A stretch of 64,000 bases of DNA. Source: Sphyrna mokarran. Lineage: Eukaryota. Shown piece after piece: positions 1,602-61,644 of this stretch. A model generated the notes under the pieces. The model was not told the origin of the DNA. It saw only the letters and a list, made by a program, of their open reading frames with translations, and did no database searches. Every line of letters starts with the position of its first letter. Position 1 is the first letter of the stretch. The DNA is taken from the NCBI GenBank assembly GCA_024679065.1, contig JAGIQG010000019.1, positions 27,404,001 to 27,468,000 of the forward strand. The letters run 5' to 3'. Position numbers and translations under genes: made by a program.

Positions 1602-1709
1602 CTGATCAGCAGCTTCATAATCCACTGAGCTTACTGTAGAAATGGCACCCACCGTATCAATATCAAACAGTGTAAGAATACCCGATGTGGAGAGTGAGAG
1701 AATTGTATA
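1602..1709 (-). CDS. Exon 25 (108 nt; cassette A3, EC10)
   Basis: YTILSLSTSGILTLFDIDTVGAISTVSSVDYEAADQ; ttttacag| ... |gtataa. Confidence 0.9.
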
Positions 1710-4700
1710 CTGTAAAACATTGTTTTAAAAAGAACACACACACTGTTGTGAAAATGCGATGGTTATTGTTTCAAATAATCAAAATGTCATCAATTTGATG
1801 ACATTTATCTTTTGCATTAATAAGTATCAATCAAAGCAAATTGCATGCATCAGTCAACAATCAGTTTGATATTATTGCAAAAGTAAATGCAGTTAAAATA
1901 CATCTGACCCTGAGGGGACTTGACAGAATGAATGCTGACAATCTGCTTCCTATTGTGGGAGAGACTAGCACAAGGGAAACAGTTTAAAAATAAGGGATAT
2001 TCCATATCAGACAGAGATGAGACCATAAGATATAGGAGCAGAATTAAGCAACTTGGCCCATCGAGTTTGCTCCGTCATTCAATCATAGTTGACATTTTTC
2101 TCATCCCCATTCTCCTGCCTTTTCCCCATAACCCCTGAACCCCTTATTAATCAAGAACCTATCAATCACTGTCTTAAAAACACTTAATACCTGGTCTCCA
2201 CAGCCTCCTGCAGCAAAGAGTTCCACAGATTCATCACTTCCTGGTTGAAGATTTTCCTCCTCTGTTTTAAAGGATCATCCTTTTAATCCAAGGTTGTGCC
2301 CTCTGGTTCTAATTTTTCCTACTAGTGGAAACATCCTCTCCATGTCCACTCTATCCAGGCCTCACTGTATCATATAAATTTCAAGAAGATTCTACCCTCA
2401 TTCTTCTAAACTCCAACTGTTCCTCATATGACAAGCTCTTCATTCCAAGCATCGTTCCTAGACCTTTTCCAAGACCAGCACATCATTCCTTAGATATAGG
2501 GCCCAAAACTACTCACAATACTCCAAATGGGGTGTGACCAAGCCCTTATACAGCTTCAGCAGTACAACCCTGCTCTTACATTCTAGCTGTCTCTATGTGA
2601 ATACTAACATTGTATTTGCCTTCCTAACTGCCAACTGAACCTACACATTAACCTTAACAGAATCTTGAACAAGGACTCCCAGGTCCCTTTGTACTTCTGA
2701 TTTCTTAAGCATTTCTCCATTTAGAAAATTGTCTATGCCTTCATTCCTCTTCCAAAGTAAGTAACCTCATATTTTTCCACATTGTATTCCATCTGCCACT
2801 TCTTTGCCCCACTCTTAACCTAAATCCTTCTTCAGGCCCCCTGCTTCTCAATGCTACCTGTCCTTCTATATATCTTTGTATCGTCTGCAAACATAGCAAC
2901 AGTGCCTTCAGTTCCTTCTTCCAAATCATTAATATATATTGTGAAAAGTTGTGCTCCCACACTGACCTGTGAGGCGTACCACTAGTCACTGGCTGCCCCT
3001 TTATCGCCACTCTCTGCCTTCGCCTGAAGAAGACTACAAAAGCCGAAAGCTTTCAAGTTTACTATCAAAAAAAATCGGTTGGATTTAAAATTGGTGTTGT
3101 CAGACCTCTTACTGTGTTCTGTCAGTCAGCCAATCCTCTATCTATGCCAGGATCTTACTCTTAACACCATGGCCCTTAACTTATTTAACAGTCTCTGATA
3201 CGGCACCTTGTCAAAGGCCTTCTGGAAATCTAAATAAATCACTTCCACTAGTTTTCCTTTATCTAACTTTCTTGTTACCTCCTCAAAGAACTCTAACAGA
3301 TTTGTCAGACATGACCTCCCTTGATGAAGCCATGCTGACTCAGTCCTATTTTATCATGCACTTCCAAATATTCCGCACTCTCACATTTAATAATGGACTC
3401 TAAAATCTTGTCAGTGATCAAAGTGAGGCTAACCTGCCTATAATTTCCCAACTGCTGTCTCCCTCCCTTCTCAAACAGCAATTTTACATTGCCACTTTCC
3501 AATGGTGTGGGACCCTCCTTGACTCCTGTGATTCTTAAAAGATCATCACCAATGCCTTCACAGTTTTCTCAGCTACCTCTTATAGAACCCTGGAATGTAA
3601 TCCATCCAATCCAAGTGATTTATCCACCTTCAGACCTTTCAGTTTTTCCAGAACCTTTTCTTTAATGCCACCTGTGCCCCCGATTCTCCTGGAGCTCTTG
3701 CATCCCACGGGTGTCTTCCACTATGAAGATTGATACAAAGTAACTACTCAGTTTCTCTGCCATTTCTTTGCTTCCCATTATTACATCTCCAGCCTCATTT
3801 TCCAGTAGTCGAATGTCTATTCTCGCCTCTCTCTCACCTTTTAAATATTGAAAAAGACTCTTCCTATCTTTTATATTACTAGCTAGCTTACTCTCATATT
3901 TCATGTTATTGCTTTTTTAGTTGTGCTCTGCTTGCTTTTAACAGCTTCTCAATCTCCTGCCTTCCCACTAATCCTCACCACTTTGTATGCTTTTTTGCTG
4001 CCCTTGAAATGTCTCACCCTGCACACCACCATGCGCCCCCCCACCCCTTAGCATGTTTCCTCCTCCTTGGGATGAATTTCTGTTATGCCTCCTGAATAAC
4101 CTCCCCCAGAACTCCTGCCATTGCTGTTCCACTGTCTTTCCTGACAGGCTCCCTTTCCAATCAACTCTGACCAGCTCCTCCCTCATGTCTTTGTAGTTAC
4201 TTCTATTTAATTGTAATACCGTTACATTTGATTCCAGCTTCTCCCTCTCAAACTGCAGCATAAATTCAATCATACTGTGGTCACTGCTCCTTTAGGATTC
4301 CTTCACCTTAAGTTCCCTAATCAAGTCTGCCTCATTACACATCATCAAATTCCTGTTCCCTAATAGGCTTTGTCACAAGCTACTCCAAAAAGCCATCTCT
4401 TAGACATTCCACAAATTCCTTCTCTTGGGATTCACTACTAATCTGATTTCCCCTGTCCACCTGTATATTGAAGTCCCCCATGATTATTGTAATATTGCCT
4501 TTTTTTAATTTGCTTCTTCTATTTCCCGATTTATTTTCTGCCCTAGATCCTGACTACTGCTAGGGGGTTTGTACATAACTCCCAGCAGGGTCTTTTTACC
4601 TTTGTGATTCCTTAACTCCACCTGCAGAGATTCTATGCCTTCTGATCCTCTATCAGTTCTTGCTATTGACTTAACTTCATTCTTTATTAACAATGCAACC

Positions 4701-7700
4701 CCACCTATCTGCCTGTCCTTTCAATAGGACACATACTTTGGATATTCAGATCCCAGCCCTGATCGTTTTGCAATCATGTCACTATGACGGCCACAACATC
4801 GCACTGGTCAATTTCAATGTGTGCAACAAGCTCATTTACCTTGTTTCATACACTGCACGCTTTTAGGTATAACACCTTTAGTCATGTATTGACCACCTCC
4901 CTTCTCATACTTGTCACCTTTTTTGTTCTGCCTGAGGTTGGATTCCTGCCACCTTCTACGTAATCTGTTCTATTACATGGTCTGGAAACTTTACTAACCT
5001 CTCCTAAGCTGTCAGCTCTCTTAGCGCGTTGAAAGTAGCCTACTACTTCCACTCTCTCTTTTAACTTTAATTTTCTAATTCTCCAGACGACTGAACCCTC
5101 CCCTTTTTTTCCTCTCTGTGGTGTGAGTCTGTGGAATTCTCTTCCCCAGAGAGCAGTGGAGGCAGGGATATGGAATATTTTTAAGGCAGAAGGTGATAGA
5201 TTCTTGAGTCGAAAGTTACTGAGCACAAGTGGAATGGAAAATTAAGACCACAATCAGATCAGCCATGATCAGCTTACTCCTTCTTGCAGTTTGTATGTTT
5301 AGAAAGTGTTTAAAGTTCATCCACATTTTACTTGTATTGTAGGGATCACAATATGTGACCTGCCCATGCCAGTTTCATTGGATGTTGGCAAAAGGGAAAC
5401 TCCCAGTTCATTATCATGATTATAGTGGACAAACAAATGGATTGTTCACTGATGCCTCTGCAAATTATCAACTGGTTCTGGCCTCAATAGGGCCCCAAAG
5501 AATATTGTGCAGTGAGTTGGTGCTGCAGCCAGCCTTGTATTCTTAAAGGCAATCTGTCCCTCTCAATTGCACGCCATTATGAATAAAGATGCTGGAATTT
5601 AAATGATAATGAATGGAACAGCAGGGAAGATAGAGCAACTGGATGCATGAAACAAACAGTTGCAGTATATGTTCTAATATCACACTGGATTTTCATTTTG
5701 TATTATTCAAGATCATGTCAAACAAAGAAATGAAACTCACATTTAACAATTCATTTTCAGGGTCTGTTGCTGAGACTCTATAAACAAATTCTCCAATATT
5801 ATCGGTCTCAGAGATAGTCACGTTAGGTCCTGCATGAAACAGTAGCACGAGTTAACAGGTACTAAACTGTCCAGCATTGTACTCATTCAAGCAAGGATGA
5901 ATTTTATTAGTTTTCCTGTTGTTTGTGTGTAACAAGAATGGATGGGAAATCAGTATCTTAAACTGAATATAATCACTCAGGCTGGATTTTCAGTCTCAGA
6001 GACGAGTGGATGTCAAGAAAGTTTTCACCTGATCCCACACTCCTTTGGGCAAAATTGCCAAGAAAAATGGGAATTTCTGAGGGGAATACTGATAGGGGAC
6101 CTGTCCATAACTCCATCAGGATCTTTTTACCTTTGCAATTCCTCAATTCTACCCACAGAGATTCTATGCCTCCTGATCCTATATCAATTCTTGCTATCAA
6201 TTTAACTTAATTCCTTAGGTGATACATAATGGAACTTGACTGAAAACCCGAAAATCCGTTAGACAGTTTAAAAAAACTAAGCCCCAGAGAAAACACGGTG
6301 TGATTGACAGTGGTAGCTCTCTGATCTCTTCATCAATTGTGCTTTGTTAATTTACATAAGATAATGGGCAGAATTCTCCAGCTATTTAAGCCCCTGCTGC
6401 CAGTGAACGGAGAATTTGGCCTCAGCTCAATAAAGAGACCATGTCTATGGTTACTGATGACACAAAGACAGGAGAGAAAGTTATGAAAATGGCATAGGGG
6501 TCTACAAAGGGATACAGATAGTGAAAAAGAGCAAAACTTCAGCAGAAGGAGTATAATGCGGGAAAATGTGAACTTTTCCATTAAATTGTAGAGAAATTGC
6601 ATAATTCTGTGGTACAGAGGAATCTGGTATCTTGGTGCTTGTTTCACAAATGGTTAAGAAATAGGTAATTGGGAAGGTAAATGGAATGTTGTTCATTTTA
6701 AGAGCAGTAGAATGTAAGAGTAGAGAAGTTTTGCTACAGTTGTACAAGACAACATCTAGAGTACCATGTACATTTTCAGCCTCCTTCAGTGCAGAGAAGC
6801 TGGTTCCTGGGATGAAGAGGTTGTTGGATGAGGAAAGGTTTACAGATTGGAATTTAGAAGAATGAGATCTCATTGGACGCTGAAAGAATGTATCTCCTTG
6901 CGGGAGAGTCTTAAAAGAAGTTTTAATAAGAATGGATCTCCCACTTAAAATGGAGATAAGGAGAAATAGGCTCCAGCAGCTGAATGACCTAGTACTAATC
7001 TGTTTTGATGTGGTTGCATCAATACTCATTGCTGTTCAGGAACATCTAAAACTGCAGAAACTGCAGCAGGAAATAGTTGGGGACAGCTATTGGCAATCAT
7101 AGGAGATCTAAGTTTGGTTTGGTATCATGTAGCTGTTAGTGTGAGAGTGGGCTAGGTGGCAGGAGGATGCAGTGTTTGTGGATGGGAACAGAGAGATTGC
7201 AGCAGAAGATCTTTGAGAGATCAAGAAGAAAAATTCTTGCTCCTCTTGGTCTGCAGTCGGTGCTGGTAAAGTTCTTATCTGCTCAGTCTGACTGTCCCCC
7301 CTGGTTCTTTAGCTGATGCGTAACTGAGTTCTGGAGATCTAAATGAGCAGTCATCAATGTTTAATTTATTATTGCACATTCGTATAAAATTGTACCTAGT
7401 TGATCAAGTGGCATGAGAGTCCTGTGATTATATTCTTGACTCGAGTTCCTTTAGAGTGTACACTATTGCTAAAACATTAAACCTGTATGTTTGCCCTAAT
7501 GCGCTGTCACCATTTTCTGAAAGATGTCTCTTTGACATGGTTGGATTTCTTTTATTCTTTCACAGGAATTTGGCCTTGCTTGCTAGGCAAGCATTTGTTG
7601 CCTAATTGCCCCGAAAAGGATTCTGAGTTTTATTGCAGTAGAACATGGAGATCACAAAAATGAAACGTCATCATTCCTTTCTGCCAATGCTATGTTCTGG

Positions 7701-10700
7701 AATAATGCTCCCACATTTCCACCCTACTAATGGAAAGACCTGCATGCTTTTGGATTCATAACTGGAGCATGAGAAATGAAATTATGGTTGTGATTTTCCA
7801 ATCTTCATTGGGAGTCCAATTACTTCTGCTGGGTGTGCCCTAAACCTCATTCGGTGGGGCCAGAAAATCCTAGCCTGTGAGCAGGAAGTATTTGATTCCA
7901 AAGAAGAATTCAACTCATTGCAATCACTATTCAATATAGATAAAGATTAATCATTTAAATATCTTCACCCGCTATAAATTCAGCATCGCACACAGGATCC
8001 TCATCGACGGGAGTCAATGATACATTCAGGTTGCATGTGGCTGTGTTACCTCCCTGGTCTGTAACCACTACATTTAATGTGTAGAATTTGACAACAGACA
8101 CATCCTCATAGTCCAATACCAATGTATTGGTAATTATTACAGTGTCTCCAACTGAAAGATAAGAGATACATCTGTTTAATCAAATATAGCTCAGGTGAAT
8201 AAAATGCATTGCGTATACATCACCACAGACAAAGAAATGTAAGGAACTACAAAGAGGGCAAGAAATGAGAAAAGCTCCAAGCTGGTGTGACACACATCCA
8301 AATGTATACAACACTGAATTAAAATGAAACGTTTATTTATTAGTCAGAGGTAGGCTTACATTAACACTATAATGAAGTTACCATGAGAATCCCCTAGTCA
8401 CCACACTCCAGCATCTGTTTGGGTCAATGCAACTAACCAGCATGTTTTCAAAATGTGGGAACAAAACCAGAGCAAACTCACACTGACACAGGGAGAATAT
8501 GCAAACTCCACACAGAAAGTGACCTGAACCAGGAATTGAACATGGGTCCCTGACACTGTAGGGCAGCAGTACTAACCACTACTTACAACAATAAGCATAG
8601 CAACACACAGAGAGATGGAGCCATATATTCACAGAGATCGTGTCACAACACACAAAACAGAAATTATGCACATGTACAATCACTGAAATGTAGGGTGGAA
8701 TTTTACAAGATTTTTTTTCTAAGTATCCAGCTGGTGTGAAAAGGGAAGAGTTTCTGATTCATTTCTCGGATGAGTTCTCATGGCCAATCTTGTGCACTCA
8801 GTCTTTGAAAATATGGGCTGGACCATTGCTAGCCATGAGAGGCAGTGGGTGGAGCCAATTCATCAGAGAGCTAGCAGCTCAGATCAGACCTACAAACTAC
8901 ACATGTGCAGGAAAAGCAGAATAAAACAGCTCTATTGACAGATCACCCCTGGGACAGATACAGCTTCCACCTGCATCCTCCATGGCCATCAGTGACTCTT
9001 GCCACCCCCCCCCCACCCCCCCCCCCCCCCCCCCGGTTATTACTGACCTGCTTATTCCCCACAGCCCCTTCGTGCATCCCCTTACACAAGCACTCCTCAG
9101 CACTCCTGGTGGCCCCAATGGCTGACTGACATGTCCCTCTCCTTCCCATTTCCCCTATCATCATAGAGGTAGGGATCCCAACTCCGCCTCCATCAGCTGC
9201 AAATGCTGACTTGGTCTCTTCACTGGTGACAAGACAAACTGCATTAAATTCACTGAAATGCTCTAATGGGTGAGTGAGTACCCAAACTGCCTGCAGCTGA
9301 ACTGTCCTAACAGGGCACAGCTCTATAAAAACTCCAAGGATGGATAGACAGGCCAAGTTACTGGAGATGGTGGAGACAAGGTGGGACAACCTGTTCTGCC
9401 CAGCAAGAAGCTGTACCAGAGAAAGAGACTGAAATGCAACCAGAGCCCTGGCCAGGAGAACTGGAAAGCAATGCTGAAAAAGACTAAATGACCTAATCTG
9501 GTCAGCAAGGATGAATGTTTAACCTCATCTAGTCACAAATGTCTCCAGTGGCGGTTTGGAAGGATCCCATGGTGTAAAGGTTTAAGACCATTATGTAAGA
9601 AAACATCACATCCACAGATCCAAAAGCAGAGCAAAGAGAAACACAACACAGGACAAAGAAACACCAGAAGGCACAGAGAGAAAACAGAGTAAGAAACTTA
9701 ACATCCACATAATGTCACAGATACAAATATCATACACCAGACTTCACAATGGCCAATGTCCTGGGGGAATCGTTATAGTTAATTGAGTTCATACCTTGGT
9801 TAATTTCAAACGAAGGTTCATTTACTGCAAAACTAAACGTCAGGTTCTCATTGTCATCACCATCTGAGGCAGATAAAGTTATTAGTGTTGTCCCAGCAGC
9901 CACTTCCTCATTCAGGGTTAAGCTAGTCAATGGACAGGAACTGAAAATGAGACAAATATTCCTGTTTAATAAACCGAAGAAACATCAGTCGGAATGAGAA
10001 CTGATCTTGTCTGCCAACAGGGGAATAATATCTGACGTACCTGATGACTGGAACTTCATCATTGACATCAGTAATTGTGATCGTTACTGTGCCTGTGCAA
10101 GCGAGGCTTGGAGAGCCAGTGTCATTAACAGATACCACAGCATAGAAAAGCTGAAGGGAAAGAACAAAACTTTCAATTAAATCTGTCAATGAAATGTAGA
10201 TCCCAGTCTCTAAAATGACTGGAATAAAATCTGTGCTGAAGATATTCTCATTGTTCAGTAGTAATAATGTATCTCATACCATGTCACCATTTTCAAAATT
10301 CAAATCAGCTGCTGTGGTGATTAGACCCAAATTGTCCACGTCAAATAGTGCGCTGGTATTGGTGGAGGAGCTCGACAGGATGGAATACTGAAAGAAATCA
10401 GGAAGTTTTATTTCTGTCAGTGTTATATACAATTTATTTAGGTAAACATTTAGATAAACTTCATTTTCTGTCTTTTTTTTCCCATCTCAATTGTTGAGAT
10501 TAAACATAAGGAATGGGTATTGAGGTTTCTTCTGGATTCGGACTTGGATCTTACTATTGAGTGTCCTACCGGGCTCTCTGTGATAACCTCCAAAACTCCA
10601 CAATGAAAGACCATTGATTAAATCTTTGGGCACAATCCTACTGGTTGTTCACTCCTCGCTCCTACTACGGCAAGGTCGGAAAATCTGGGCACTCAGCCAA

Positions 10701-13700
10701 AGCTCTGTCCTTTGCAGCGGGATGGGGCAATTCCACCAGCCTAAACATCTGCAACATCTGTTTCTCTCCATAGATGTTGTCTGACTTGCTGAGCTTTTCC
10801 AGCCTTTTTATTCTTATTCCAAAGAGCAGATCTATTGGTGGGGGGTGGGGGGAAAATGACAGATGAAGTGGAGAATCGAGGTTAGGTTCCAAAACGGCTT
10901 TTACGCCAGTGGGATCCTTCCAGCTCACTCCCCCCATCTCGATTGTTCCCATCCCGAGTTATGTAACTGGGTTCCCGCCTCGCAATGATGGAAACCCTAT
11001 TATACTCCCATCAAATATAATTAGCTGGCCTCCCTGCTGTAACATCCACCCATGTAGTGTGACACCACTTTGGTACTCTTTAAAATAGGCTTTTAAAAAC
11101 AGGGCTGTGGCAAACAGAAGGCGCCAGAGGTGCACAGATAAGTTCAGAAGTACAGCCCTTGGGGGCAGAAGGTCATCCCCAGGCAGGAATCTGGCACTGC
11201 CAGGAAGGTTCCTTGGGAAAAGTGCTCTATGTTCTGTGGTGGGCGTGGGGTGAAGTGTGGGGGCACTATTGGTATTCTATGGGGCAGAAGCCGAGGGGGG
11301 ATAGTTAATTGTGAATTCCATGGTGGACATAGGAAGATTCGTTACTGGTGGGGGTTGGAGGAGGGGTTCCTTTGATCTATCTCTATTGTTCTGACATTGG
11401 GGCACCCTGATTGGTGAATAGCGGATGTTTCAGGTCAGGCAAGCCCTCTTTCATCATGGGAACTGGCTCCTTGATTTTTTAATGCAAGTTTTTAAAAGTA
11501 TGGCAGGTACAGTGGGCACTGCAGCCAGTGGGCTGGCATCTGCTTTCAACATCTGAGCTGACCTTTGGACAGAAAATAGAAAAAACTCCACTCACTTTCT
11601 ACCAGTTGATCCTTGGTGCCACTGCAGGGAAAAGTGTGGAGCTTCTGCTGTGTTTGTTGTCCAGCAAGGTTAATGTACGAGGAGAGAACTGAAAACAAAT
11701 GGAGATGGGGCAATGCGTGGACAGAGAGACAGCTGATGAGAGAAGATGCAGGGTGTGAGAGGAAAGGAAGACAGGAGAAGAGAAGAGAATAGATAAGAAG
11801 AACTGATGGATTGAGATAAGTATAGAGCCAGTTGGAGTGAAGAAATTTATATTGCTACAAGGAACAAAACGGTTCAAAATGCATGTCATAAGCTCAATGT
11901 AGAACTAAACCATCCGACAATGAGAAAGAACTTACCTGTAAAGCATTTCCATCAGGATTAGATGCTGTTATCTTATAGACAGACGTACCAATAGCAATGT
12001 CCTCAGCAATACTGACAGCGGGTCCTGTAACAAAGGAAAAGTGATTATTGTAAACAGGATCATGTCAATATGTATCTGATGGTGCTCATGATGGTAAATT
12101 AGTTTATGTTTATGATGAACCAATGATGAGGCATTTCAATGTCTTGAGCAGAATTCATCTTTGTAACTTTGGCATTCAGGTGATTATGGAAAAACAACAA
12201 ATGCTGGACTTGTCAGCAACAATCACATCCCATGAAAGAATAAAAGCACTTCTAATGCAACAATTAAATGTATTGCAATGATCTTTATCACTGAGTGCAA
12301 TCCCTCTATCCTAAAGTCAATTGCCTTTGTTTTAAACAGGCTCAATAATTTCAATCCTCATGCGGTCAGAGTTCCAAAGGTCTACCACTCACTGAGTGAA
12401 GAAATTCCTCATTATTTCAGTCCTCATCTCTGTCTTATTCTAAGACTCTTCAAAGTCTATTCAAGACTCCTCCACCAACCACCCCCCCCCACCTCTTCTC
12501 ACCTCCCCTTCTACCCACTTGAGCCTTTTAAGAATTTTGTACATTTCCACGAGATCATCTCTTAACTCTGGAAAGAACACAGGCCAGACTCCTCAACCTC
12601 TCTTCAGAGAACAATCCTGCTATCTCAGGATTCAGTCTGGTGAACTTCAGTTACACATCCTCTGTGGCCTTATGTAAAGAGACCAACATGGCACATAAGA
12701 CTCTTGATGCAGTCTCACTAGCGATCTTTTCAGTTTTAAAACCCACCGCCTCTAATGATGGGTTGGGCCAGAGCTCTCCACTGCTTCTTTCCACATCTCT
12801 GCTACTTGCCATGCCTCCATCTCTCTGTTTTTCCTTGCATCACCCATGGCTCGGTCACAACTTCCTCAGCTCCTCGCACTTTGGTTTTCCCTACTACCAT
12901 CAGCACATGCCCGTGTTCGGGCACTGCTAGGCTTCAGGCCTAACACCCAAATCTACAATCACAAATATCCTTAAATCCATATTCATTGATATTCACATCA
13001 ATGACCACATCCACTAACACACATTTACTAACACACACATGCATCGACCAAGGCTCTGTCCACTCCAGTTAGAAATCAGTCACCATCAGTGAATTAACCC
13101 AACATTCCACAAGTAAGCAGAATGGCAAAAATGATTGATGAGGGAAGGGCTGTAGATGTTATCTATATGGACTTTAGTAAAGCATTTGACAAGGTCTCTC
13201 ATGAGATTGGTACAAAAGATTAAATCTCACAAGGTCAGCAGTGAACTAGCTAGATGGATTCAGATCGGCTTGGTCAAAGAAGACAGAAGGTAACGGTTGA
13301 AGGGGTGTTTTTCTGAATGAAAGTCTGTAACTTGTGGTATTCTGCAGGAATCAGTGCTGGACCCTCTGCTGTTTGTAATATATATAAATGACTTGGAAGA
13401 AAACACAGCTGGTTACATTAGCAAGTTTGCAGTTGATACTAAGATTGGCGGAGTTGCAGATAATAATAAAAATAATCAGAGAATACAACAGGATATAGAT
13501 AGGCTGGAAAATTGGGCAGAGCAATGGCAGATGGAATTTAATCCAGACAAATACAAGGTGATGCTTTTTGGTAGATCAGCTAGGAGCTAAAATATAAATG
13601 GCAGACCCATGAGGAGCATAGACACACAGAGAGATCTGGGAATATAGGTCCACAGATCTTTAAAAGTGGCAGCGTAGGTGGAAAAGGTAGTGAAGAAAGC

Positions 13701-16700: not shown

Positions 16701-19700
16701 CAGATATAGCCAAATATGTCCATAAGAGACACATAGCCTTGCACATTAACAGACTGACAGTCAAAGTACTCATTAATTCATTTTTCATCCTACTCACCTG
16801 CAACAAACTGAGGGTCACAAACAGGAGTTTCACTGACAGGATTTAAAGACACATTTAGATTACAGCTGGTGACATGAGATGCCAGGTCAGTGACAACGAT
16901 ATTTAGTTGGTAGTCTGTGATTGCAGAGGCATTCTCATAGTCCAAAATGGAATTAGTAATAATCCACGCGCCATTTCCAACTGTAAGTGAGAGATAAGTT
17001 GGTTAATATCAATCATTTATTTTACTGAAACAGTTTATCTATAATAGAACAAAGAACAAAGAACAAAACAGCATGGAAAACAGGCCCAACGAGCCCACGC
17101 CACCACCCCGATGTTCCCACCTCTACCCGCGATCCCTATCCATGTTCATAGATCTATGGATTAAAAACCAAATTTGAGACAATTTAGGGAGAATTTGTTT
17201 TGCCAATTAGCCTAAGAGCACATCTTTGGGATGTGGGAGGAAACCAGAGCTCCCGGAGAAAACCCACGCAAGCACGGGGAGAATGCGCAAACTCCCACAG
17301 GCACAGGCCCAAATCCATGTATCTGCACAGCACAGCGATAGTCACTGAGCTGTCGTGTTGCCCATCAGATGGTCCAGGTCAAGCATGCACTAACAACGTG
17401 AAGCAGTAGGATACTCTCGAAAAAGATCCAAGAGCAGTCCTCTCATGACCCATTGCGTGTATGCCCCTCGTTAGACAACAAGGTGGACCAAAGCACCTGT
17501 AGGATAAAAACAAGTACATCAATATCATCTATTTACACACTTCCCAGGGACTCCAAAGGCTCATGATCCCTAGTTTAAATCAGTTTTCTATACCCCTCCA
17601 TTCCCATTCTGTTCATGTGCCCATCTAAGTATTTCTTAAATAACTCCAGACTACCTGCCTCCACCACTTTACTTGGCAGTGCATTCCATACCCGCATCAC
17701 CCTCTGTGTGAAAAAACCCCCTCTAGCATCCAAATTACACCTTACCCCCCTCACCCTAAGCCCATGACCCCTCGTGCTATTTGAGTCCATCCTAGGAAAA
17801 AGCTTAACCCTGTTTACTCTATCTATCCCCTTCAAAATCTTGTATACCTCTATTAGATCTCCTCTAAGTCTACGTCTTTTTAAGGAAAACATTCCCAATT
17901 TGCCTAATCTCTCCTTGTAACTCAGACCGTCCATACCAGGCAGCATCCTTGTAAACCTCCTCTGCACTCTCTCCAGAGTCTCCATGTTCTTCCAGTAGTA
18001 AGGCGACCAGAACTGGATGCAGTATTCCAAATGAGGTCTAACCAGCGTTTTATACAACTGCAACATTAAAGGCCAACATTAATTGGCCATGATAAAATGC
18101 CCTTTGATGTCCCAAGATATACAGGTTAGGGCAATTAGTTGGATATGGATATACAGAGTTACATGGATAGGGCCAGTGTGCAAGACACTCTGTTGGTATC
18201 TTGCACACAGCTGGTGCCGAATTGATGAGTCCCAATGGCCTCCTTCTGCACTGTAGTGATTCTATGACATAAGTCTTGCTTTAATATCTTTGTACAAGGT
18301 AAACCGTGAAGACAAGGGCATCTCATTAAAAATTTAAATGAAGTCCAAGCCTCATTTTATGCATCTAAAGTTTGGGTGTCCCAATATTGACTGGAAAACC
18401 AGTCTGTGAGTTTGTGAATTCTTAGCATTCACCACATTCCATACGTGGATCTCCCACTAGATAATGGATATATCAGTATCAATAGACTATGGTGAAAAGA
18501 GGGAGTGAAAACAGGGAACAGAAACTGAGATGATAGCTTGTTCTGAATTCTCTCTTTGAAATGACTGAATGAAGAGATGTTAATTCCCTTACCTTGCTGA
18601 ATTTGGAAATCAGTTTCAGGAATTCCAAAGGAGAAAGTCAAGTTATCAGTGGTGTCATTATCAGAGGCTGAGAGAAAAGCTACAATTGTTCCAGCAGGTA
18701 ATTCTTCATCCACTGACACTGGACTCGAAGGACATTGACTAGAAAATGGATGCTCATTATTAACGTGCAACCTGGAATCTTTTGACATTGATCTTACTTA
18801 CCAATTGGATTAAGCTAAGTTATGATTACTAAAATAATTTACTCATAAAAAAGGCATAAATAGGAAGTGTAATTTCAATCTACCCTAATTATTAAGAAGG
18901 AAAATGTTTGACAATTTCTGGTGAGAATATTTATTTAAATTCAGAATTTATGATTCTCTCAAAGTATAAGTATTATAAAAAGCTAGTGCTTTTTCTCAAA
19001 TGTAATGTTATTTGAGAAAAATGTGGCCACATAAACCAGTTTAATAACAGACCTTATGACTGGAACTTCATCATTGACATCAGCAATGTGGATAGTTACA
19101 ATGCCAGTGCAGGTATTGCCTGCTGGGTCAGAAACAGAAACCATGGCATGATACTGCTGTAGCTGCAGAGAGACAAGATATAATCACATTTTCATTACTG
19201 GAAACCAACTAGAATTAATATATCTGCTACAATTCAGTCAATAACCATTTTGTATCAATAAACTTTTGCTGATGTGAGATGTTCTGGGCTTCATCACAAC
19301 AGCGGGCTGTATAACGACTTAAGTAATTGGTCAAAATTTAGTGGGTTGTTTTATATTATTTTCTCAAAGGATGTGGGCATCACCGACTTGACTAGAATTT
19401 ATTGTCAATCTCAAATTGCCCTTGAGATGGTAGTGATCAACCACCTTCTGAACTGCTGCAGTCCATGTGGTGTAGAAAGAAAGTGACATAATTTTGAACC
19501 CGTGGCACTGCTAGTTCCAAATCAGGATGGTGTGTGACTCCGAGAGCAACTTGGAGGTGATATAGATCTGTTGTCCGTGTCTTTCTAGATTACAGAAGTT
19601 GCAGGTTTGGAAAGTGCTGTGAAGCAAACCTCAATGAGTGGCTGTGATTAATCTTGATTTTCATGCACATTATCCAGGTTTAATTCTGAGAGAAATAAAT

Positions 19701-22700
19701 AAGATGAACAATTGGAAGTCTTTTCAATTACAAAGCCGCACAAGTTCAAGATAAGGAGGGAAGTGAATAGAGGCAGGTTATCTGAGCTTTGTTGTATCTT
19801 TGCCTCATGTGTGAAAGCCAGGGAAAAAAAGTCAAAAACATGGGAGACCTGTCATAGTTTTTCACTTGCTACATAACCAGAAGGCTGGAATTTCATAATG
19901 GCCCCAATTTGTTTGTTGTAACAAAGGCAGAGGTGTTTGTGTTCACATTCATTACAACTGAAAGCAATTTTTTGTGTTTGTACATGAAGAGTTAAAAATG
20001 GAAATAGGAGATTTTTGATGATGTTTTTGTGCTCCACAGCAAGTATTGGTGTCCCTATAAATGGAAACCTTTAGAGATTATTTGAATTAATGTGGATTTT
20101 CACTTTTATGCCATTAATCTCACCGTAAAAAAAACTTTGATAAAAGCTATGTCTTATTGAGTGAGGTGTAACTGGATTTTTAACAGCATGGTTACTGTTA
20201 ATCACACAATAGGACTGAGAAGGTAATATTTGTGAAATATCAAATTTTTTCATTTAGAAAAATAATCCAAAAATACTTAAAATAATACAAAGCTACTGTT
20301 AAAACATATCTTATGATATTTCAGCTTCTACCTCAATGTCCTGTGTACGTGAGAATATTTATTTCACTCCCAGTAAAATGTGACTGAACGTATGATCTCC
20401 AAATTTGCAGATGACACAAAGGTGGGAGGCTGAGTAATGAAGTGAATGCAGAGATGCTTCTGTGCGATTTGGACAGGCTAAGTCTGTGGGTATACACACG
20501 GCAGGTACAGTAAAATGTGGATAAATGTGAGGTTAGCCACTTTGGTAGCAATAATAGGAAGACAGATTATTACTTGAATGATTGCGAATAGTGAGAATTG
20601 GATACTCAACGAGAACATGCTGTCCTTGTGCATCAGTTATTAAAAGTAATTAGGCAGGTACAGCAGGCAATGAAGGTGGCAAATGGTATGTTGGCCTTCA
20701 CTGCGAGACAATTTGAGTGTAGGGATAGGAATCTTTTGCTGTAATTGTCTAGAGCATTGGTGAGGCCACACCTAGAGTATTGTATGCAGTTTTGTTATTC
20801 TTGTCTGAACAGGGATGCCCTTGCTATAAAAGGAACGCAGTGAGTCTACCAGGCTGTTTCCTGGAAGATAAGTCTGTCATATGAGGAGAGAATAAGTCAC
20901 TTAGGATTATATTCACTGGAGTTTAGAAGAGTGAGAGGATTTCAGAGAACTTATAAAATTCTAAAATGTTCAGAACGAATATTCCTAATGGTGGGGAGAT
21001 CCAGAACCATGGCTCATCGTTTGAGGATAAAGAGAAAACGTTTTAGAACTGAGGGGAGGAGAAATTTCTTTACCCAGAGGGTGGTGAATGTGTGGAATTC
21101 ACGACCACAGAAAGTAATTGAGTCCAAAACATTGCCTGATTTCAAGAAGAAATTAGATATAGCTCTTGGGGCAATAGGGATCAAGGGAAATGGGGGGAAG
21201 CGGGGAATCAGGATATTGTATTAGATGATCAGCCATGATCAAAATGAATGGTGGAGCAGACTCGAACGTCTACATGGCTTACTCCTGCTTCTAGTTTCTA
21301 TGTTTCAATGTGATGTATTGGGTGAGATTTCCTGACCCCTCCATGTCATGTTTTTTGATTGTGGGAGGTGGCCTGCCATTGGCCAGTATAGGGATCTTGG
21401 AGCTGAAAAATGAGGCAGTTGCCGACAAGGAAATCCATTTACCAAAACATCACAACTGTTCACTGAGGATATCAGAAGATCTGAAGGTCACAAGTACATA
21501 AAGATTGACCTGTGTGTTACAGTGCAATAAACAACACTTGTGGGACAAAGTTGGAGACCACAAAGATCAGGCTGTGGGAGGGAATCTTTTACTCTCTCTG
21601 TGGTGAGCTTGGAGATGGGAAGGGTATTTAATTAGTCTGGATGGTGGATTATCAGAAGGCTACCACCTTCCTATCTCGGCCAGAATTTAACTGGGCAAGA
21701 AGGCCCATGGTTGATCTTCCCACCCTGGTGCTAATCATAGAATCTCTAGAGTGCAGAAGAGGCCATTTGGCCCCTTATGTCTGCACTGACTCTCTGACAG
21801 AGTATCTTACTCAGGCCCTCAACGCTGCCCTATCTCCTTTCAAGACCTTTAAATAGTATTATCGCAGCTGCAGATGGATCTGCAATTAAAACAATGTAAC
21901 CAGTTTACCATCTCCAGGCTTATCCCTTGATGAAAGGCATTCAGTATCTGATTGAGGGACTGAACATCAGGAAACAGGGAGCTGCCAAACTTTCTGCACC
22001 CCTTCCTCCACAACACTTGGAGTCCTCAGCTTTGACTCTGGATCCCATGAAGTCTCATGGTATCAGGTAAAACATGCAGAAAGAAACCTCCTGCTGATTA
22101 CCGTCTACCATTCCCTCTCAGTTGATGAATCAGTACTCCTCCAGTTGGAGGGAGCACTGAGGGTGACAAGAGCAAGGAATGTAATCTGGCTGGGAGACTT
22201 CAACATTTTTCACAAAGAATGACTCAGTAAGACCACTGCTGACCAAGCCCTAAAAGGACATAGCAGCTAGTCAGGTTTTGCAGTTGGTACTGAAGGAATT
22301 GACAGAAGAGAAAAATCCACCTGACCTTGCCCTGACTGATCTACCTGTTGCAGATGCATCTGTCAATGACAGTGTTAGTGGGAGTAATCATTGCACAGTC
22401 CTTGTGGAGATAGAGTCCTGCCTTCACATTGAAGATACCCTCCATTTTGTTGTGTACTAAATGGGGAAGATTTCAAATACATCTAACAACTCAAAACTGG
22501 ACATTTATAAGAATTGTTGTGGGTCTGGAGTCATGCGTGTAGGTCAGAGCACTATGGACTATTGACAGCACAGAATTGTGTTTGACCACAATCTGTACCT
22601 CATGGCCTGTCATTACTCCACTTGACCACTAGCCAAACTACATTGGCATCTACTCGGCAATGTGGAAAGTATCCAGATATGTCTAGTGCACAAAAAGCAG

Positions 22701-25700
22701 GACAAATCCAACTCAACCAAACACCAATCCATCAGATTACTAATAACATGGTGGAAGAGGTCATCAACAGTTCTATCAATTTACTCAGCAATAATTTGTT
22801 TACTGACGCTCAGTTTAGCTTTGTTAGGGTCACCCCTAAATGCTGACCTCATTTTAAAATGGATGAAAGAGCTGAACTGCAGAGTGAGGCGACAATGATT
22901 GCCCTCGACATCAAACCAGCATCTGACCAAGTGTGGCAGCGAAGAACTGTAGAAAAATTGAAGTTAACTGGAATCAGAAGGAAACTCTCCCCTGGATGGA
23001 GTGATAGATGCACAAAGAAAGATGGTTGTGGTTCTTTCAGGTCAGCAATCACAACTTCCGAACATCATTGCAGGAATTCCTCAGCTCAACCATTTTCAAC
23101 CTCTTCATCAATGGTTTTCCCTACATCGAAGGCCAGAAATGAGGTTGTTCACTGAAAATTACACAATGTTCAGAACCGTTCACAATGACTCAGATACTGA
23201 GGAATTCGTACCCATATGCGCCATAAATGGGACATTACACTCGGATTGATAAAAGGCACACACAAAATTAGAGTTTTGTGATGCCATTACATAATATGCT
23301 GAGTAAATGAATAGGATGTCATACCTGATCAGTAGCTTCATAATCCACTGAGCTTACTGTAGAAATTGCACCCACCGTATCAATATCAAACAGTGTAAGA
23401 ATACCCGATGTGGAGAGTGAGAGAATTGTATACTGTAAAATATTGTTTTAAAAAACACACACATTATTGTGAAAATGCAATGGTTATTGTGTCAAATAAT
23501 CAGAATGTTACACATTTGGTGTAGGAATATAACATTTCATTCCTTAATAAATATCAAATCGAGGCAAATTGCATGTACCAGTTAACTGTCAGATTGATAG
23601 CATTGCAAAAGCAAATGAAGTTAAAACACATCTGACCCTGAGGGGACTTGACAGAGTGAATGCTGACAGTCTGCTTCCCATTGTGGGGGAGACTAGCACT
23701 AGGGAAACAGTTTAAAAATAAGGGATATCCCATTCGTAGATCAAGAAAGTGTTTAAAGTTCATCTACATTTTATTTGAGTTGTAGGGGTTACAATGTGAC
23801 CTGCCCATTCCAGTTTCATTGGACATTGGCAAGAAGGAAACTTGGTGTTCCCAGTTCATGACCATGAATATACTGTACAACCAAATGGGTTGTTCCCGGA
23901 TTCCACATCAACCTATCAACCGAATCTGGCCTCACTGGTGGTCCAAAGAGTATTGTGCACTGAGTTAGCGCTGCAGCCAGCGTTCTATTGTGAAAGGTAA
24001 TCAGTACCTCTCAAGGGGATGCCACAGTGAATAAAGGTGCTGGAATTTAAAGCATGTTGAATGGAACAGCAGGGAAGATAGATTATTGTTCAGCAACTGA
24101 ATGCATGAAACAAACAGATGGGGTATATGTTCTAACATCACATTGGATTTCCATTACCTATTATTCAATCATAGCAAACAAAGAAACTCACATTTAACAA
24201 CTCATTTTCAGGGTCTGTTGCTGAGACTCTATAAACAAATTCTCCAATATTATCAGTCTCAGAGATAGTCACGTTAGGTCCTGAATGAAACAGTAGCAAG
24301 AATTAGCAGGTACTAAACTGTCCAGCGTTATACAAACTTTAAAAAGGATGGATTTCCCATTTAAAATGGAGATGAAGAGGAAGAGGCTCCAGCAGCTGAA
24401 TAGCCTATTCCTAACCTGGTTACACCTTCACATATTCACTGCTGTCAGGAACATCTGTACCAAAAACCTGCAGCAGGACAGAGTTGGGGACAGCCATTGG
24501 CAATCAGAGAAAATCTAAGGCTGGTTTGGTATCATATAGCTAATACTGTGGAAGTGAAGAAGGTGGGATAGGTGATAGAAGGATGGTGCACTTGTGGATG
24601 GGAATGGAGAGATTGCATCAGAAGATCTTTGAGAGGCCGAGAAGAAGGACTCTTGCTCCTCCTGGTCTGCAGTCATTGCTGGAGAAGTTCTTACCTGCTC
24701 AATCTGACTGTCCCCCATCCCTGGCCCTTTAGCTGCTATGTTCCTGAGTTCTGATGATCTAAATGATCAGCCATCAATGTTTAATTTATTATTGCACATT
24801 CCATAAAACTATACCTGGTTGATCAATTGGCACGAGAGTCCTGTGATTATATCCTTCGTTCAAGTTCCTTTAGAGTGAAAATTATTGCTGAAACATTAAA
24901 CCTATATTTTTGTGCCCTAATATGCTGTCATCATTTTCTAAATGCTGGCAGGACTTCACAGAAACCCTACAATGCAGAAGGACGCCATTTGGTACATTAC
25001 AGACTGCACCAAAAACAATTCCACAACAGGCCCTATCCCCATAGGACAACACATTTACCCTACTTTTCCCTCTAATACATCCCAGGACTCTAAAGCGGAA
25101 TTTAGCATGGCCAATCCACCTAATACACACATCTTTGGACAGTGGGAAGAAACCAGAACACCCAGAGGAAACCCATGCAGACACAGGGAGAATGTACAAA
25201 CTCCACACAGACAATGACCCAAGCCAAAAATCGAACCTAGGACTCTGGAGTTGCAAGGCATCAGTGCTAACCACTGTGCTACCATGCCTTCCTCTGTGCT
25301 GTCTCTTAGACATGATTGGATTTTGTTTATGTTTTCACAGGAATTCAACATTGCTTGCCAGAAAAGCATCTATTGCCTAATCCCTAATTGCCCCTGGGAA
25401 GGGCTCTGAGTCTTATTGCAGTATGGAGATTACAAGAACAAAGCATTATTCATTCCAACGAGACAGATTTTCCACTTTCTGCCAATGTTATATTCAGGAA
25501 TAATGCCGTCACATTCCCACCCTACAAATGGAAAGATCTGCATGCTTTCTGGGTTGATAATTGGTGCATGAGAAATGAAATCATGGCTGCGATTTTCCAG
25601 TCCTGCCCACCACCAGAATCTTCCAATCTTGTCAGAAGTCCAATTACTTCTCGTTGACGGGACCAGAAAATTTTAGCTTGTGAGCAGGAAGTATTTGATT

Positions 25701-28700
25701 CCAGAGAAGAACTCAACTCATTGCAATCACTATTCAACATAGGTCAAGAGTAATCATTTAAATATCTTCACCTGCTATAAATTCAGCATCGCACACAGGA
25801 TCCTCATCGACGGGAGTCAATGATACATTCAGGTTGCATGTGGCTGTGTTACCTCCCTGGTCTGTAACCACTACATTTAATGTGTAGAATTTGACAACAG
25901 ACACATCCTCATAGTCCAATACCAATGTATTGGTAATTATTACAGTATCTCCAACTGAAAGATAAGAGATACATCTGTTTAATCAAATGCAGCTCAGGTG
26001 AACAATATGCATTGCGTATACATCACCGCAGACAAAGAAATGTAAGGAACTAAAAAGAGGGCAAGAAATGAGAAAACTCTGAGCTGTGTATCACACATCG
26101 TTAGGCATACAACACTGAATTAAAATGAGATCACAACAACAACACACAGAGAGATGAAACCACATGTTCACAGAGATCATGTCACAATACGCAGAACAGA
26201 GATTGTGCACATGTACAGTCACTGAGATATAGGGCAGAATTTTATGAGTTTTTTTTTAATTGTCCAGCTAGTATGAAAATGGGAGAGTTCCTGATGCATT
26301 TTCTGGGTGAATTTTCACACCCAATCTTTGCACTCAATCTTTGAAAATATGGGCTGAACTGTTTCTAGCTGATAATGCAGTGAGTGGAGTCTAATTCGCC
26401 AGACAGCTAACAGTTCAGATTGAAGCCACAAACTGCATTTGCGCAGAAAAAACAGAAGAAAAACAGCCCTACTGACAGAGCACTCCTGGGCCACATACAG
26501 CCTCCCCCTGCCCTCCTGGGCCACATACAGCCTCCCCCTGCCCTCCATGGACGTTAGAGACTCCACCCCCAACATTACTGATTCTCTTACTCCCTCTTTG
26601 ACCTCTTCAGTGACCCCCCCATTCCCATGCATTCCACTACACAAGGCCCCCTTAGCATAGCCCCGATAGCTGACTGACATGTCCCTCTCTTTCCCCTGCC
26701 CATCCCCACTGATAATCTCAGAGGTGCAAATCTCCCTCTTCCATCAGCACACCTGCAAGTGCTGACTTGCCTTCTGCTCCATGGTAACAAGGCAAACTGA
26801 ATTACACTCACTAGAATGCTCTAACGGGTGCGTGACTCTCCCAAACTGCCTATGGCTGAACTGCTGTAACAAGGCACAGCTCCATAAAAACTCCAAGGAT
26901 AGAGAAATATACAGGTAATGCAGGAAGAAGTAGCCTCCAGAAAGAGAGCCCCCGTTATTTAGATGTTGATCTGGCCAAGTTACTGGAAGTGGTGGAGGCA
27001 AGGTGGGAAACCCTCTTTCCCCCAACAGGAAGCTATCCCAGAGAAAGGGATGGAAGCGCAGCCAGAAAGGTGTTGGCAGTGTGTGTTAGTGCCAAGGTAC
27101 TGGGCGAGAGAACTGGCAAGCATCACTGCAAAACACTAGAGCTCATGAACAACAGCAACTCCCCACCTGCAACACCACCAATCCCCCTCCCCACACCGCC
27201 ATACACATACACGCAGGCTCCCCCTGACCTGAAACACAACATGGCCACCACTAAACAATTCCCTCTGAGTAATACAAAAAGCAGAGACTTAATTCCTCGC
27301 TCAGCCTCTCTGACCACGTGCCTGAATGTGACTTTTACATATGAGGTGTTTTCCTGACTGATCCTGCCGCAGTGAACAAGGTGTTTAAGTCAGGTGAGCT
27401 GGCACGATTGGGGATGAAGCTCATTAATACATTGTAATGAATGCAAATAAAATGCAACTTGATGTTTTGCCCCTTTTGGGTGGGGCCCCAATAGTACCGA
27501 TCTTTTAATGTATTGGTAAAATGGAAATGGGCATACTAGTTGCATAGTACTCAACTTTATCACACTTTTCTGCAGCAAAACAGGCTCAACGAGATCCTAA
27601 AATTCCACCCATTGTGTAAGAAAACATCACATCCACAGATCCAAATGCAGAAACAAAAGCATAGCAAAGAGAAACACAACACAGGACAAAGAAACACCAG
27701 AAGGCACAGGGAGAAAACAGAGTAAAAAAACTTAACATCCACATAATGTCACAGATACAAATATCATACACCAGACTTCACAATGGCCATTATCCTGGGG
27801 GATTCACTATAGTTAATTGAGTTCATACCTTGGTTAATTTCAAAAGAAGGTTCATTTACTGCAAAACTAAACGTCAGGTTCTCATTGTCATCACCATCTG
27901 AGGCAGATAAAGTTATTAGTGTTGTCCCAGCAGCCACTTCCTCATTCAGGGTTAAGCTAGTCAATGGACAGGAGCTGAAAATGAGACAAATATTCCTGTT
28001 TAATAAACCGAAGAAACATCAGTCGGAATGAGAACTGATCTTGTCTGCCAACAGGGGAATAATATCTGACGTACCTGATGACTGGAACTTCATCATTGAC
28101 ATCAGTAATTGTGATCGTTACTGTGCCTGTGCAAGCGAGGCTTGGAGAGCCAGTGTCATTAACAGATATCACAGCATAGAAAAGCTGAAGGGAAAGAACA
28201 AAACTCAAGATAAATTGACCAATGAAATCTAGATCCCAGTCTGTAAAATGACTGGAATAAAGTCTCTGTGCTGAAGATATTCTCATTGTTCAGTAGTAAT
28301 AATGTATCTCATACCATGTCACCGTTTTCAAAATTCAAATCAGCTGCTGTGGTGATTAGACCCAAATTGTCCACGTCAAATAGTGCACTGGTATTGGTGG
28401 AGGAGCTCGACAGGATGGAATACTGAAAGAAATCAGGAAGTTATTAGAGAATCATAGAACACCTACAGTGCAGAAGGAGGCCATTCAGCCCATTAAATCT
28501 GCACAATGAATTTCCCATCCCAGGCCCGATCATCACAATCGCACACATTGACCCTGCTAATCTCTCTAACTGAAGGATCCCGGGACACTATGGGTCAATT
28601 CGTATGGCCAATTAAACTAATCCGCACATTTTTGGACAGTGGGAGGAAAACAGAGCACCCGGAGGAAATCCACGCAGACACAAGGAGCATGTGCAAACTC

Positions 28701-44413: not shown

Positions 44414-45029
44414 TTTAAAGGCATTCGGCAGAATGATTACCCTGAGCCTCTGCACAGTTCCACAATGCGTTCCTCGTTCGAGGGACAGAACTGTACAACT
44501 ACTGTCACTTGACACCACCTTAATTTCAATGTTTAAAAAATTATTTGAAAACAAATAACCAAACATGTAATTACAGTATCACATAACCAGCATAGGAAAA
44601 CTATTTAAGCATTATATATATCCTGTGTATTGTAGTTCATCGCCTAGAAACGGCTCCAAATCTCCAAAGCAGAAACCATTGACATTTGCCATTATTAACC
44701 AAATACTGCCTTACAGTGCCAGGATCCCAGCTTGGGTGATTGTCTGTGCAGAGTTTGCACATTCTCCTTGTGTCTGCGTGGGTTTCCTCCCTTAGTCCGA
44801 AAGATGTGCTGGTTAGGTGCATTGGCCATGCATAAGCGTATTTGTGACATGAGTAAATAAACTAAACTTAAAAAAAATTCTTGTTTGGAAAAGTGACTGA
44901 GAATTTTTATACCAAGTTCAAGCAGCAGATGTCATGTAAGATTTCTCACAAATGAAAATTGCAACAAAGCCGATCAAAGTAGCAAAGATGATTTCTTTGA
45001 TTAAAAAAAAGGCAACCTTTATCATTTCA

Positions 45030-45330
45030 AGTTTATTTATTATTTCTTTTTATTAGTGTCACAAGTAGGCTTGCACTAACACTGCAATAAGGTTACTGTG
45101 AAAATTCCCTAGTCGGCGCATTCAGGCACCTGTTTGAGTACACTGAGGGAGAATTTAGCACGGCCAATCACCTAACCAACATGTCTTTAGGACTGTCAGA
45201 GGAAACTGGAGCACCGGAAGATATGGGAAAACATGAAGACTCTGCACAGACAGTGACCAAAGCTGGGAACGGAATCCGGGTCGCTGGCACTGAGAGGCAA
45301 CAGTGCTAACCTCTGCGCCGCTGTGCCACC
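45030..45330 (-). mobile_element. V-SINE (alternative-tail subfamily)
   Basis: tRNA head at ~45330; tail ...gcagtgttagtgcaagcctacttgtgacactaataaa. Confidence 0.8.
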
Positions 45331-45447
45331 ATTGTATAACAACATTGCTACATTACTTGTACTGCTGCAGGTGGGTAAAACTACAGGCTGCAATTTGACA
45401 TTTCAATGTCACTGTGCGATTGCACTCTTCAAATTAAAAAAAATTTG

Positions 45448-45985
45448 AGACCATAAGACGTAGGAGCAGAATTCGGCCACTCGGCCCATCGAGTCTGCTC
45501 CACCATTCATCATGGCTGATTGTTTATCGCATCCCCATTCTCCTACCTTTTCCCCAGAACCACTGATCCCTTTATTAATCAAAAACCTATCTCTGTCTTA
45601 AAGACACCAAATGATCTGACCTCCACAGCCTTCTGTGGCAAAAGATTCCACAGATTCACTACTCTCTGGCTGAAGAAATTCCTCTTCATCTCTATTTTAT
45701 AGGATCGTCCTTTTAACCTGAGGTTGTGCCCTCTGGTTCTAGTTTTTCCTACTATTGGAAACTTCCTCTCCACGTCTACTCTATCCAGACCTCACAGTAT
45801 CAGTAAGTTTCAATAAGATCCCCTCCTCATCCTTCTAAACTCCAATGAGTACAGACAGAGTTCTCAACCGTTCCTCATATGCCAAGCTCTTCATTCCAGG
45901 ATCATTCTTGTGAACATCCTCTGGACCCTTTCCAAGGCCAGCACATCCTTCTTCCGATTTGGAGCCCAAAACTGCTCACAATTTG
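45448..45985 (-). mobile_element. CR1 3' fragment, same family as 2021-5100
   Basis: RNFFSQRVVNLWNLLPQK; tail matches 2021-2520. Confidence 0.88.
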
Positions 45986-53739: not shown

Positions 53740-53945
53740 GCTGGGCAGGGTAGTCTATCTGTCTGCTGTGGGAGGTGGTAGTCTGCCAGTCTGCTGGGTG
53801 AACAGTCTGTCTGTCTGCTGGGCAAGGCAGTCTGCCTATCTGCTGAGTGAACAGTCTGTCTGTCTGTGGGCAGGGCAGTCTGTCTGTCTGCTGGACAGGT
53901 CAGCCTCCCTGTCTGCTGGATGAACAGCCTGTCTGTCTGCTGAGT
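53740..53945. repeat. ~24-bp minisatellite (ctgggcagggcagtctgtctgtctg-like), about 8 degenerate units
   Basis: Visible tandem repetition. Confidence 0.8.
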
Positions 53946-61525: not shown

Positions 61526-61644
61526 ATACAAAAGAAACTTATCATACAAAAAAAACTTAAATCAGAATATTTCTATTGCATTGACAATCTCTATGATACC
61601 CATCACTTACATAAGGCCAAAAAATGTTTCAGTGCACAGGTGAT

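Follow-up and report, generated by a model that had tools for sequence, protein, structure and literature searches.

Introduction

Repeats within a single gene are homogenised in dumpy, in the abalone egg receptor VERL and in filaggrin. In the portion of the fugu Pcdh2 report used here (PMC1852091), cadherin ectodomain coding sequence is 99% homogenised per lineage, with sharp borders and unconverted neighbours; in the corresponding portion of the report on Argiope MaSp silk genes (PMC9779670), exon-intron units undergo intragenic concerted evolution and the copies group by gene or species. For interlocus gene conversion in general, the sections consulted of two further papers (PMC3966226, PMC3924818) describe a rate that depends on sequence identity and its length, an interplay with selection, and tracts of 50 to several hundred bp. 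Here we analysed a stretch of 64,000 nucleotides of Sphyrna mokarran (assembly GCA_024679065.1, contig JAGIQG010000019.1, positions 27,404,001 to 27,468,000), called the window below, which carries on its minus strand the 5' part of a multi-cadherin gene built of repeated modules. It is very probable that paralogous stretches of these old tandem modules have been kept alike by repeated intragenic non-allelic gene conversion together with purifying selection. A preliminary description of the window had proposed the same combination of an old duplication, patchy gene conversion and purifying selection. The proposal is supported by a synonymous divergence (dS) of 0.05, which lies far below the intron divergence of 0.18 and is not equal to it, by introns found again in an independent sequencing run and by the clustering of three exons, e7-e9, by species.

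Results

Modular architecture of the gene

The part of the gene in the window comprises 25 exons, 3114 nt and 1038 stop-free codons, and the gene extends past the window's left end, within module X3. Its module exons, located by exon-peptide search with their ends set at AG/GT, number 22 and run from 39599 to 1602 in one open frame, with a strict size cycle of 89, 108, 110, 146 and 183 nt. Five exons form a module of 212 residues and two cadherin domains, as judged from motifs and from Pfam on orthologues. Two module types alternate in the order X1 Y1 X2 Y2 X3.

1602..44413, minus strand: 5' part of a cadherin gene of the CDHR17-like group, by exon mapping and open frame
31579..39599, minus strand: module X1, exons e1 39599-39511, e2 36891-36784, e3 34131-34022, e4 32504-32359 and e5 31761-31579; not homogenised with module X2
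25772..29952, minus strand: module Y1, exons e6 29952-29864 (not homogenised), e7 28422-28315, e8 28184-28075, e9 27974-27829 and e10 25954-25772
16798..24280, minus strand: module X2, exons e1 24280-24192, e2 23432-23325, e3 19162-19053, e4 18738-18593 and e5 16980-16798
7969..12024, minus strand: module Y2, exons e6 12024-11936, e7 10387-10280, e8 10150-10041, e9 9940-9795 and e10 8151-7969
1602..5829, minus strand: start of module X3, exons e1 5829-5741 and e2 1709-1602

Comparison of the window with itself revealed an old, interrupted tandem duplication, 1-19 kb against 22-40 kb, in which most pieces are 73-88% identical.

Six exon pairs are far more alike than their introns

Six exon pairs, e7-e10 of modules Y1 and Y2 and e1-e2 of modules X2 and X3, differ at 2, 1, 2, 2, 2 and 2 sites, that is at 11 of 744 nt (98.5% identity). 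Nine of the differences are synonymous (185.7 sites, dS 0.050) and two are non-synonymous (558.3 sites, non-synonymous divergence dN 0.0036). The preliminary description had reported the same count and the same nine synonymous changes, and it was exact on recount, as was its placement of all six pairs on the minus strand between AG/GT ends. At 25947, 28324, 28387 and 24302, copy 1's letter is absent or nearly so in run X1, an independent sequencing run from the same species or one very close to it, and in its relatives, which have copy 2's letter; part of the 11 differences may be private to the individual or errors, and the copies perhaps even more alike.

Between the long paralogous introns, 465 of 2639 aligned sites (17.6%) are different; the count leaves out two pieces of one intron that border exons (9/207 and 15/174). 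The synonymous sites of the six pairs differ far less often (9/186; Fisher p = 7e-7). The lengths of the long introns, 1874/1643, 1491/2139 and 759/4031, are unequal through private insertions. Thus, the earlier statement that these introns are much more diverged and carry private insertions stands, its labels SINE and LINE (short and long interspersed elements) for the insertions being putative. The 100-nt intron at 27975-28074 is identical to that at 9941-10040 at all 100 of 100 sites, just as had been claimed, and the copies of the 130-nt intron have 8 differences over 127 sites. When the 3698 silent columns were shuffled, the longest identical run, 160 columns, exceeded every one of 10,000 shuffles (mean 46, maximum 97; p = 1e-4). 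Divergence climbs with distance from the exons, from 0.015 in the exons through 0.035 in the short introns and 0.10 in the first 50 bp to 0.19 beyond 400 bp.

The synonymous deficit is strongest in e7-e9 (4/90, p = 2e-4), followed by e10 (2/45, p = 0.009) and by e1 and e2 together (3/50, p = 0.016). The homogenised tracts, and a repeat that is informative on age, are as follows.

27609..28442: main homogenised block, copy 1, with e7, the 130-nt intron, e8, the 100-nt intron, e9 and some 220 bp of the following intron
9588..10407: main homogenised block, copy 2
25772..26053: second homogenised patch, with e10 and about 100 bp of upstream intron; its partner is 7969-8250, with a 173-nt exact run
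24956..25288, minus strand: dispersed short repeat of 333 bp in copy 1's intron, absent from copy 2

The copies of the main block are 95.2% identical, with 22 substitutions in 836 columns and longest exact runs of 194 and 128 nt. The homogenisation signal of e10, the 183-nt exon, is moderate.

Unhomogenised pairs in the same gene

Of the 12 exon pairs that adjacent units form in the window, six show no homogenisation. These upstream pairs (e1-e5 of X1 and X2 and e6 of Y1 and Y2; 39599-29864 against 24280-11936), which the preliminary description does not mention, have 81 differences in 725 nt and a dS of 0.23, and their few alignable intron pieces differ at 186 of 1026 sites (0.18), close to that value. 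Synonymous differences are much rarer in the alike pairs than here (9/186 vs 36/179, p = 1e-5). Because the upstream pairs reach a dS of 0.23, the gene's synonymous sites are not inherently slow to change. Among them, the e4 pair (32359-32504 against 18593-18738) has an exact run of 55 nt and only two differences at 34 synonymous sites, and has perhaps undergone an older conversion.

These pairs bear on the possibility that purifying selection, whether it acts on the protein, splice enhancers or codon usage, has kept the exons alike with no exchange between copies. The dN/dS of the six alike pairs, about 0.07, agrees with such selection, and in e1 and e2, where the synonymous deficit is weak, selection and chance may suffice. 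However, selection of this kind does not account for a whole identical intron, for the 160-site silent run or for other pairs of the same gene at a dS of 0.23, and taken together with the lineage data below we consider it very unlikely as the sole cause.

Age of the duplication

Orthologous intron pieces of related sharks differ from the window at 85 of 1083 sites in run X2 and at 89 of 1156 in run X7, about 8% when pieces below 90% identity are filtered out and 10-12% with an 80% filter; the pieces of run X9, which include exon sequence, do not enter the figure of 8%. The repeat at 24956..25288, which we take to be a SINE, is private to copy 1, and contigs of runs X2, X7 and X9 enter it by 22-25 bases. 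Since a copy-private repeat is common to these runs, the copies were separate before these species split, and the duplication is older than the divergence of these related sharks.

These figures weigh on another explanation, a recent duplication of whole units or unequal crossing-over, in which the introns would differ simply by evolving fast. The six alike pairs are indeed consecutive, probably marking the younger of two duplications, and unit number does vary, zebra shark having one X module and the window three. Nevertheless, divergence between the paralogous introns is about double that between orthologous introns of different species, the copy-private insertion is common to the relatives, and exchange of whole units would have homogenised the long introns as well. 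Such a recent origin is therefore highly improbable.

It may also be asked whether a reverse-transcribed message overwrote the exons and spared the introns. The region is rich in retroelement copies, and the likeness of e1 and e2 ends near the splice sites, with 26 differences in the 200 nearest intron bases. On the other hand, the main block contains two complete introns and some 220 bp of a third, no intron has been lost among the 22 module exons, whose phases and lengths are kept, and e6 and e3-e5, although present in the same message, are unhomogenised in the pairs seen. There is accordingly little room for RNA-templated conversion, whose probability we put as low as that of a recent duplication.

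An independent run reproduces the diverged introns

Run comparisons were made on Logan contigs; depths of single contigs were compared, and summed bin depth was not taken as copy number. Run X1 contains 0.80 of the sampled words, and 23 other runs contain 0.05-0.12. Its contigs match the copy-1 introns with 0, 0, 2 and 0 differences over 256, 595, 765 and 541 nt, at a depth of 12-17, and end exactly at the exons. The e7-e9 contigs have depths of 79-84 in run X1, 83.4 in X2, 46.1 in X5 and 48-52 in X7, which are 4-9 times those of the single-copy flanks in four runs from four studies; this ratio is rough and not a measured copy number, and is consistent with zebra shark's five Y modules plus the window's extra ones. 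The contigs of the four runs break at the same borders around the block, as would patchy tracts.

An artefact of assembly or polishing, in which the reads of one copy were written over the other, had been named in the preliminary description as a source of the identical tracts, and no sign of it was found. Run X1 may derive from the source sample itself, and with blocks so alike reads could map to the wrong copy. However, the diverged introns recur nearly letter for letter at single-copy depth in run X1, the e7-e9 block is likewise collapsed in relatives assembled separately, and a matching likeness within species is seen in independent proteins of three other sharks. An artefact is hardly credible, and is the least probable of the explanations that we weighed.

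Lineage-specific letters and clustering by species

In run X2 a single 595-nt contig covers e7-e9 at a depth of 83.4, against 10.4-16.2 in the flanks, about six times single copy. It departs from both window copies at 12 sites (among the 40 of 135 rows listed); 255 of its 561 words overlap such a site, and run X1 lacks run X2's letter at 11 of the 12. The sites 27959 and 28009 are changed in runs X2 and X5 and not in X7, and 28191 in run X2 only. Within the 100-nt intron, the letter at 27987 in contigs of related runs is that of neither window copy, and in two of three runs the same holds for 28009. The lineage differences at 27957, 27963 and 28136 change amino acids, so that constraint on an ancestral protein cannot account for them. 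Most e7-e9 copies in each lineage examined thus carry that lineage's letters, which argues further against selection without exchange.

Run X1 is mixed at sites where both window copies agree (27820, 44.6/115; 27866, 25/217; 27984, 30/96), and these are likely to be variants part-way through the array or in modules outside the window. The site 23367 was rejected as a lineage-fixed difference: the window's own copies differ there, and contig depth fits a lost minor path. For e10, run X2 has one 235-nt contig that shows 11 differences from the window and has a depth of 28.2, its flanks being at 13.7 and 14.8, and the depth in run X1 is 21.3 vs 13.1. Species-specific sharing is partial at e10 (runs X1 and X2 only), and none is shown at e1 and e2.

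Five zebra shark copies were compared with four or five bamboo shark copies; identity means and trees exclude P0003, a second model from the species of P0001, and module trees also exclude P0123, which has one partial module. For e6 the nearest copy is that of the same position in four of four cases (identity 0.80 at the same position and 0.68 at another), with four position-diagnostic residues and zero species-diagnostic ones. For e7, e8 and e9 there is no position effect (same/other position 0.82/0.82, 0.93/0.92 and 0.82/0.82), with five species-diagnostic columns and no position-diagnostic column. Exon e10 is intermediate (0.85 vs 0.80). In the e7-e9 tree the five zebra shark copies group together (85/91), as do the window's two (99/96). 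Within the same modules, then, e6 appears to track ancestry and the e7-e9 block to track species. The suggestion that paralogous exons cluster by species rather than by position is borne out for e7-e9 and not for e6, which follows position. Selection alone is largely refuted for e7-e9.

Identity of the gene

Upstream of the modules, the gene begins with two unrepeated features.

44377..44413, minus strand: first coding exon, ATG at 44413, start of a likely signal peptide; it resembles the start of zebra shark P0004
41745..43815, minus strand: unrepeated first cadherin domain, in two exons, 43815-43654 and 41918-41745

A protein search with exon e10 yielded three shark proteins (3 of 36 candidates), and the unrepeated end of one of them yielded P0004, the full-length zebra shark orthologue of 2468 amino acids (aa). 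The same unrepeated end also matches a vertebrate group at 38-52% identity, including rows named CDHR17 and Gm28710. P0004 has the same start as the window gene, then one X module, five Y modules and an unrepeated core. The window's exons are 57-79% identical to it. For e7 and e9 of the window's Y modules, identity is 94% with Mustelus and 74-76% with Chiloscyllium, which points to a ground shark. In a core tree of 21 rows, with an outgroup of four rows and no confirmed CDHR3 or CDHR4 among the rows, four long shark proteins, a shorter shark/ray paralogue and bony-vertebrate CDHR17-like rows form one clade (100/100). By homology, the window gene appears to be a shark cadherin of the CDHR17 (Gm28710) group; the link runs through the repeats, the C-terminal core lying outside the window. 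The X-Y higher-order repeat likely arose later, because it is absent from zebra shark. The predicted product is a single-pass cadherin of great length that would serve in adhesion or as a spacer, and its middle domains would evolve jointly.

Automatic database names of rows in this group include 'CDHR3-like', 'CDHR4-like', 'cadherin-23-like' and 'Fat 4-like'. Orthology to CDH23 or FAT4, as such names suggest, was rejected: cadherin-23/Fat rows of other animals reach 24-31% identity vs 38-52% for the CDHR17-like group. In the orthologues P0001-P0003, PF00028 matches 9-12 stretches, and none of the three single window exons scored matched a Pfam family. A search of solved structures gave general cadherin matches only, the best being CELSR1. 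None of 11 candidates matched in a protein search with the X-type exon e5, a weak blank as P0004 does hold an X module. Mustelus has a second group member of 968 aa, likely on the same chromosome (both lie on 85,659,579-bp contigs), and a ray has the short type (P0002, P0014). No paper on this gene, on Cdhr17 or on Gm28710 was found in the literature searched, in which subscription papers were largely missing.

Other features of the window

Rfam gave no match in the 64,000 bases of the window, and no further gene, including any neighbouring gene, was noticed by eye in 44414-50900 or 52100-64000. A 1-kb retroelement end is present in two copies, 17057-18075 and 60446-61477, which at 91.7% identity are the youngest dispersed repeat pair of the window. 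In the intron that follows e5 of module X2, a LINE-like element has a 269-bp tandem duplication (83%, 14433-14969) at its 3' end. On the minus strand at about 48990-50330 lies a decayed stretch that we take, from its likeness by eye, to derive from the pol region of a long terminal repeat retrotransposon. The tandem repeat at 53727-53942 is degenerate, its offsets being 77 and 126 bp.

Discussion

On the comparisons above, the duplication is old, the likeness of the copies exceeds that of their surroundings, its distribution is patchy and its letters are shared within lineages. From this combination we infer non-allelic conversion between modules 18 kb apart. The preliminary description had called the homogenisation exon-focused. 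The exons are indeed alike, yet the firm signal is a three-exon block including its short introns, e1 and e2 are weak, and half of the adjacent pairs escaped.

Several observations weigh against conversion as the cause, or limit its reach. The evidence for the short, isolated e1 and e2 consists of only the three differences in 50 synonymous sites given above (p = 0.016), with exact runs of 53 and 73 nt, and their flanks are near background divergence. GC content at third codon positions (GC3) is barely raised, 88/245 (0.36) vs 73/238 (0.31) and 56/173 (0.32). Run X7 has e10 near single depth and e1 at single depth, its two e2 copies differ from each other, and run X9 has e1 and e10 at single depth; homogenisation of the isolated exons appears to be episodic. 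The bamboo shark e7-e9 copies form no supported single group (8% of bootstrap trees), and the comparison of zebra and bamboo shark covers exons. Logan contigs lose minor paths, and copy 2's letters matching 28169 and 23367 are unseen in run X1, so 'all copies' is to be taken as 'most copies'. Finally, conversion and double unequal crossover are not separable from sequence alone.

If gene conversion acts together with purifying selection, the following course is plausible. Selection on the protein would slow the divergence of exons and purge their insertions and deletions, so that exons remain good repair templates between copies. The short introns would fuse e7-e9 into a homology run of about 830 bp, in which conversion would persist, renew itself and carry the introns along. 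Long introns that take insertions would escape conversion and isolate their exons, which would be converted occasionally (e10, perhaps e1 and e2) or escape altogether (e6 and the X1/X2 pairs). It is thus likely that the length of unbroken homology, not a targeting of exons, sets where conversion persists. The part of PMC3924818 consulted gives a conversion rate that depends on the length of identity, with a working threshold of about 200 bp and shorter lengths possible. The homogenised e7-e9 block spans a domain boundary and follows the short introns; since divergence also rises from the exons, homology length fits better than selection at the level of domains. It is possible, but rather unlikely, that selection as well as homology length sorts the conversions, with e7-e9 driven to identity and e6 held position-specific as a module address. 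If true, the repeats would be kept interchangeable, new amino acids included, and a shark-specific adhesion protein would carry an exon-level code of constant and positional parts.

The mechanism itself appears in textbooks, and what is new is the case, in a gene for which we found no paper. The case also brings to light an expansion, so far undescribed, in sharks of a vertebrate cadherin that has received little study. In databases, genes of this kind are broken into fragments and wrongly named, and they distort trees based on repeats. Converted and escaped exons adjoin in the same modules, in at least five copies and several shark lineages, which makes this a clean natural experiment; variants are caught mid-spread, and how conversion depends on homology length and on intron size can be tested directly in a vertebrate.

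Compared with the vertebrate CDHR17/Gm28710 group, the shark orthologues share an unrepeated C-terminal part that is 41-50% identical and falls in the single clade described above. They differ in length, most rows of the group having about 850-1050 aa and the shark long form 2468 aa in zebra shark, which adds one X and five Y modules; the window's lineage adds further X-Y repeats. As far as the portions of the two reports drawn on above go, Pcdh2 (PMC1852091) consists of separate genes, each with one large intron-free exon and raised GC3, whereas the shark units are modules of one gene with many small exons, in which homogenisation tracks intron length and GC3 is barely raised. MaSp2 (PMC9779670) homogenises its introns too, whereas in the shark gene only the short introns are homogenised and the long ones have escaped; the shark units are, moreover, folded globular domains. 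From homology-dependent interlocus gene conversion there is no difference of kind, and the shark gene provides a natural case of it, with converted exons beside escaped ones.

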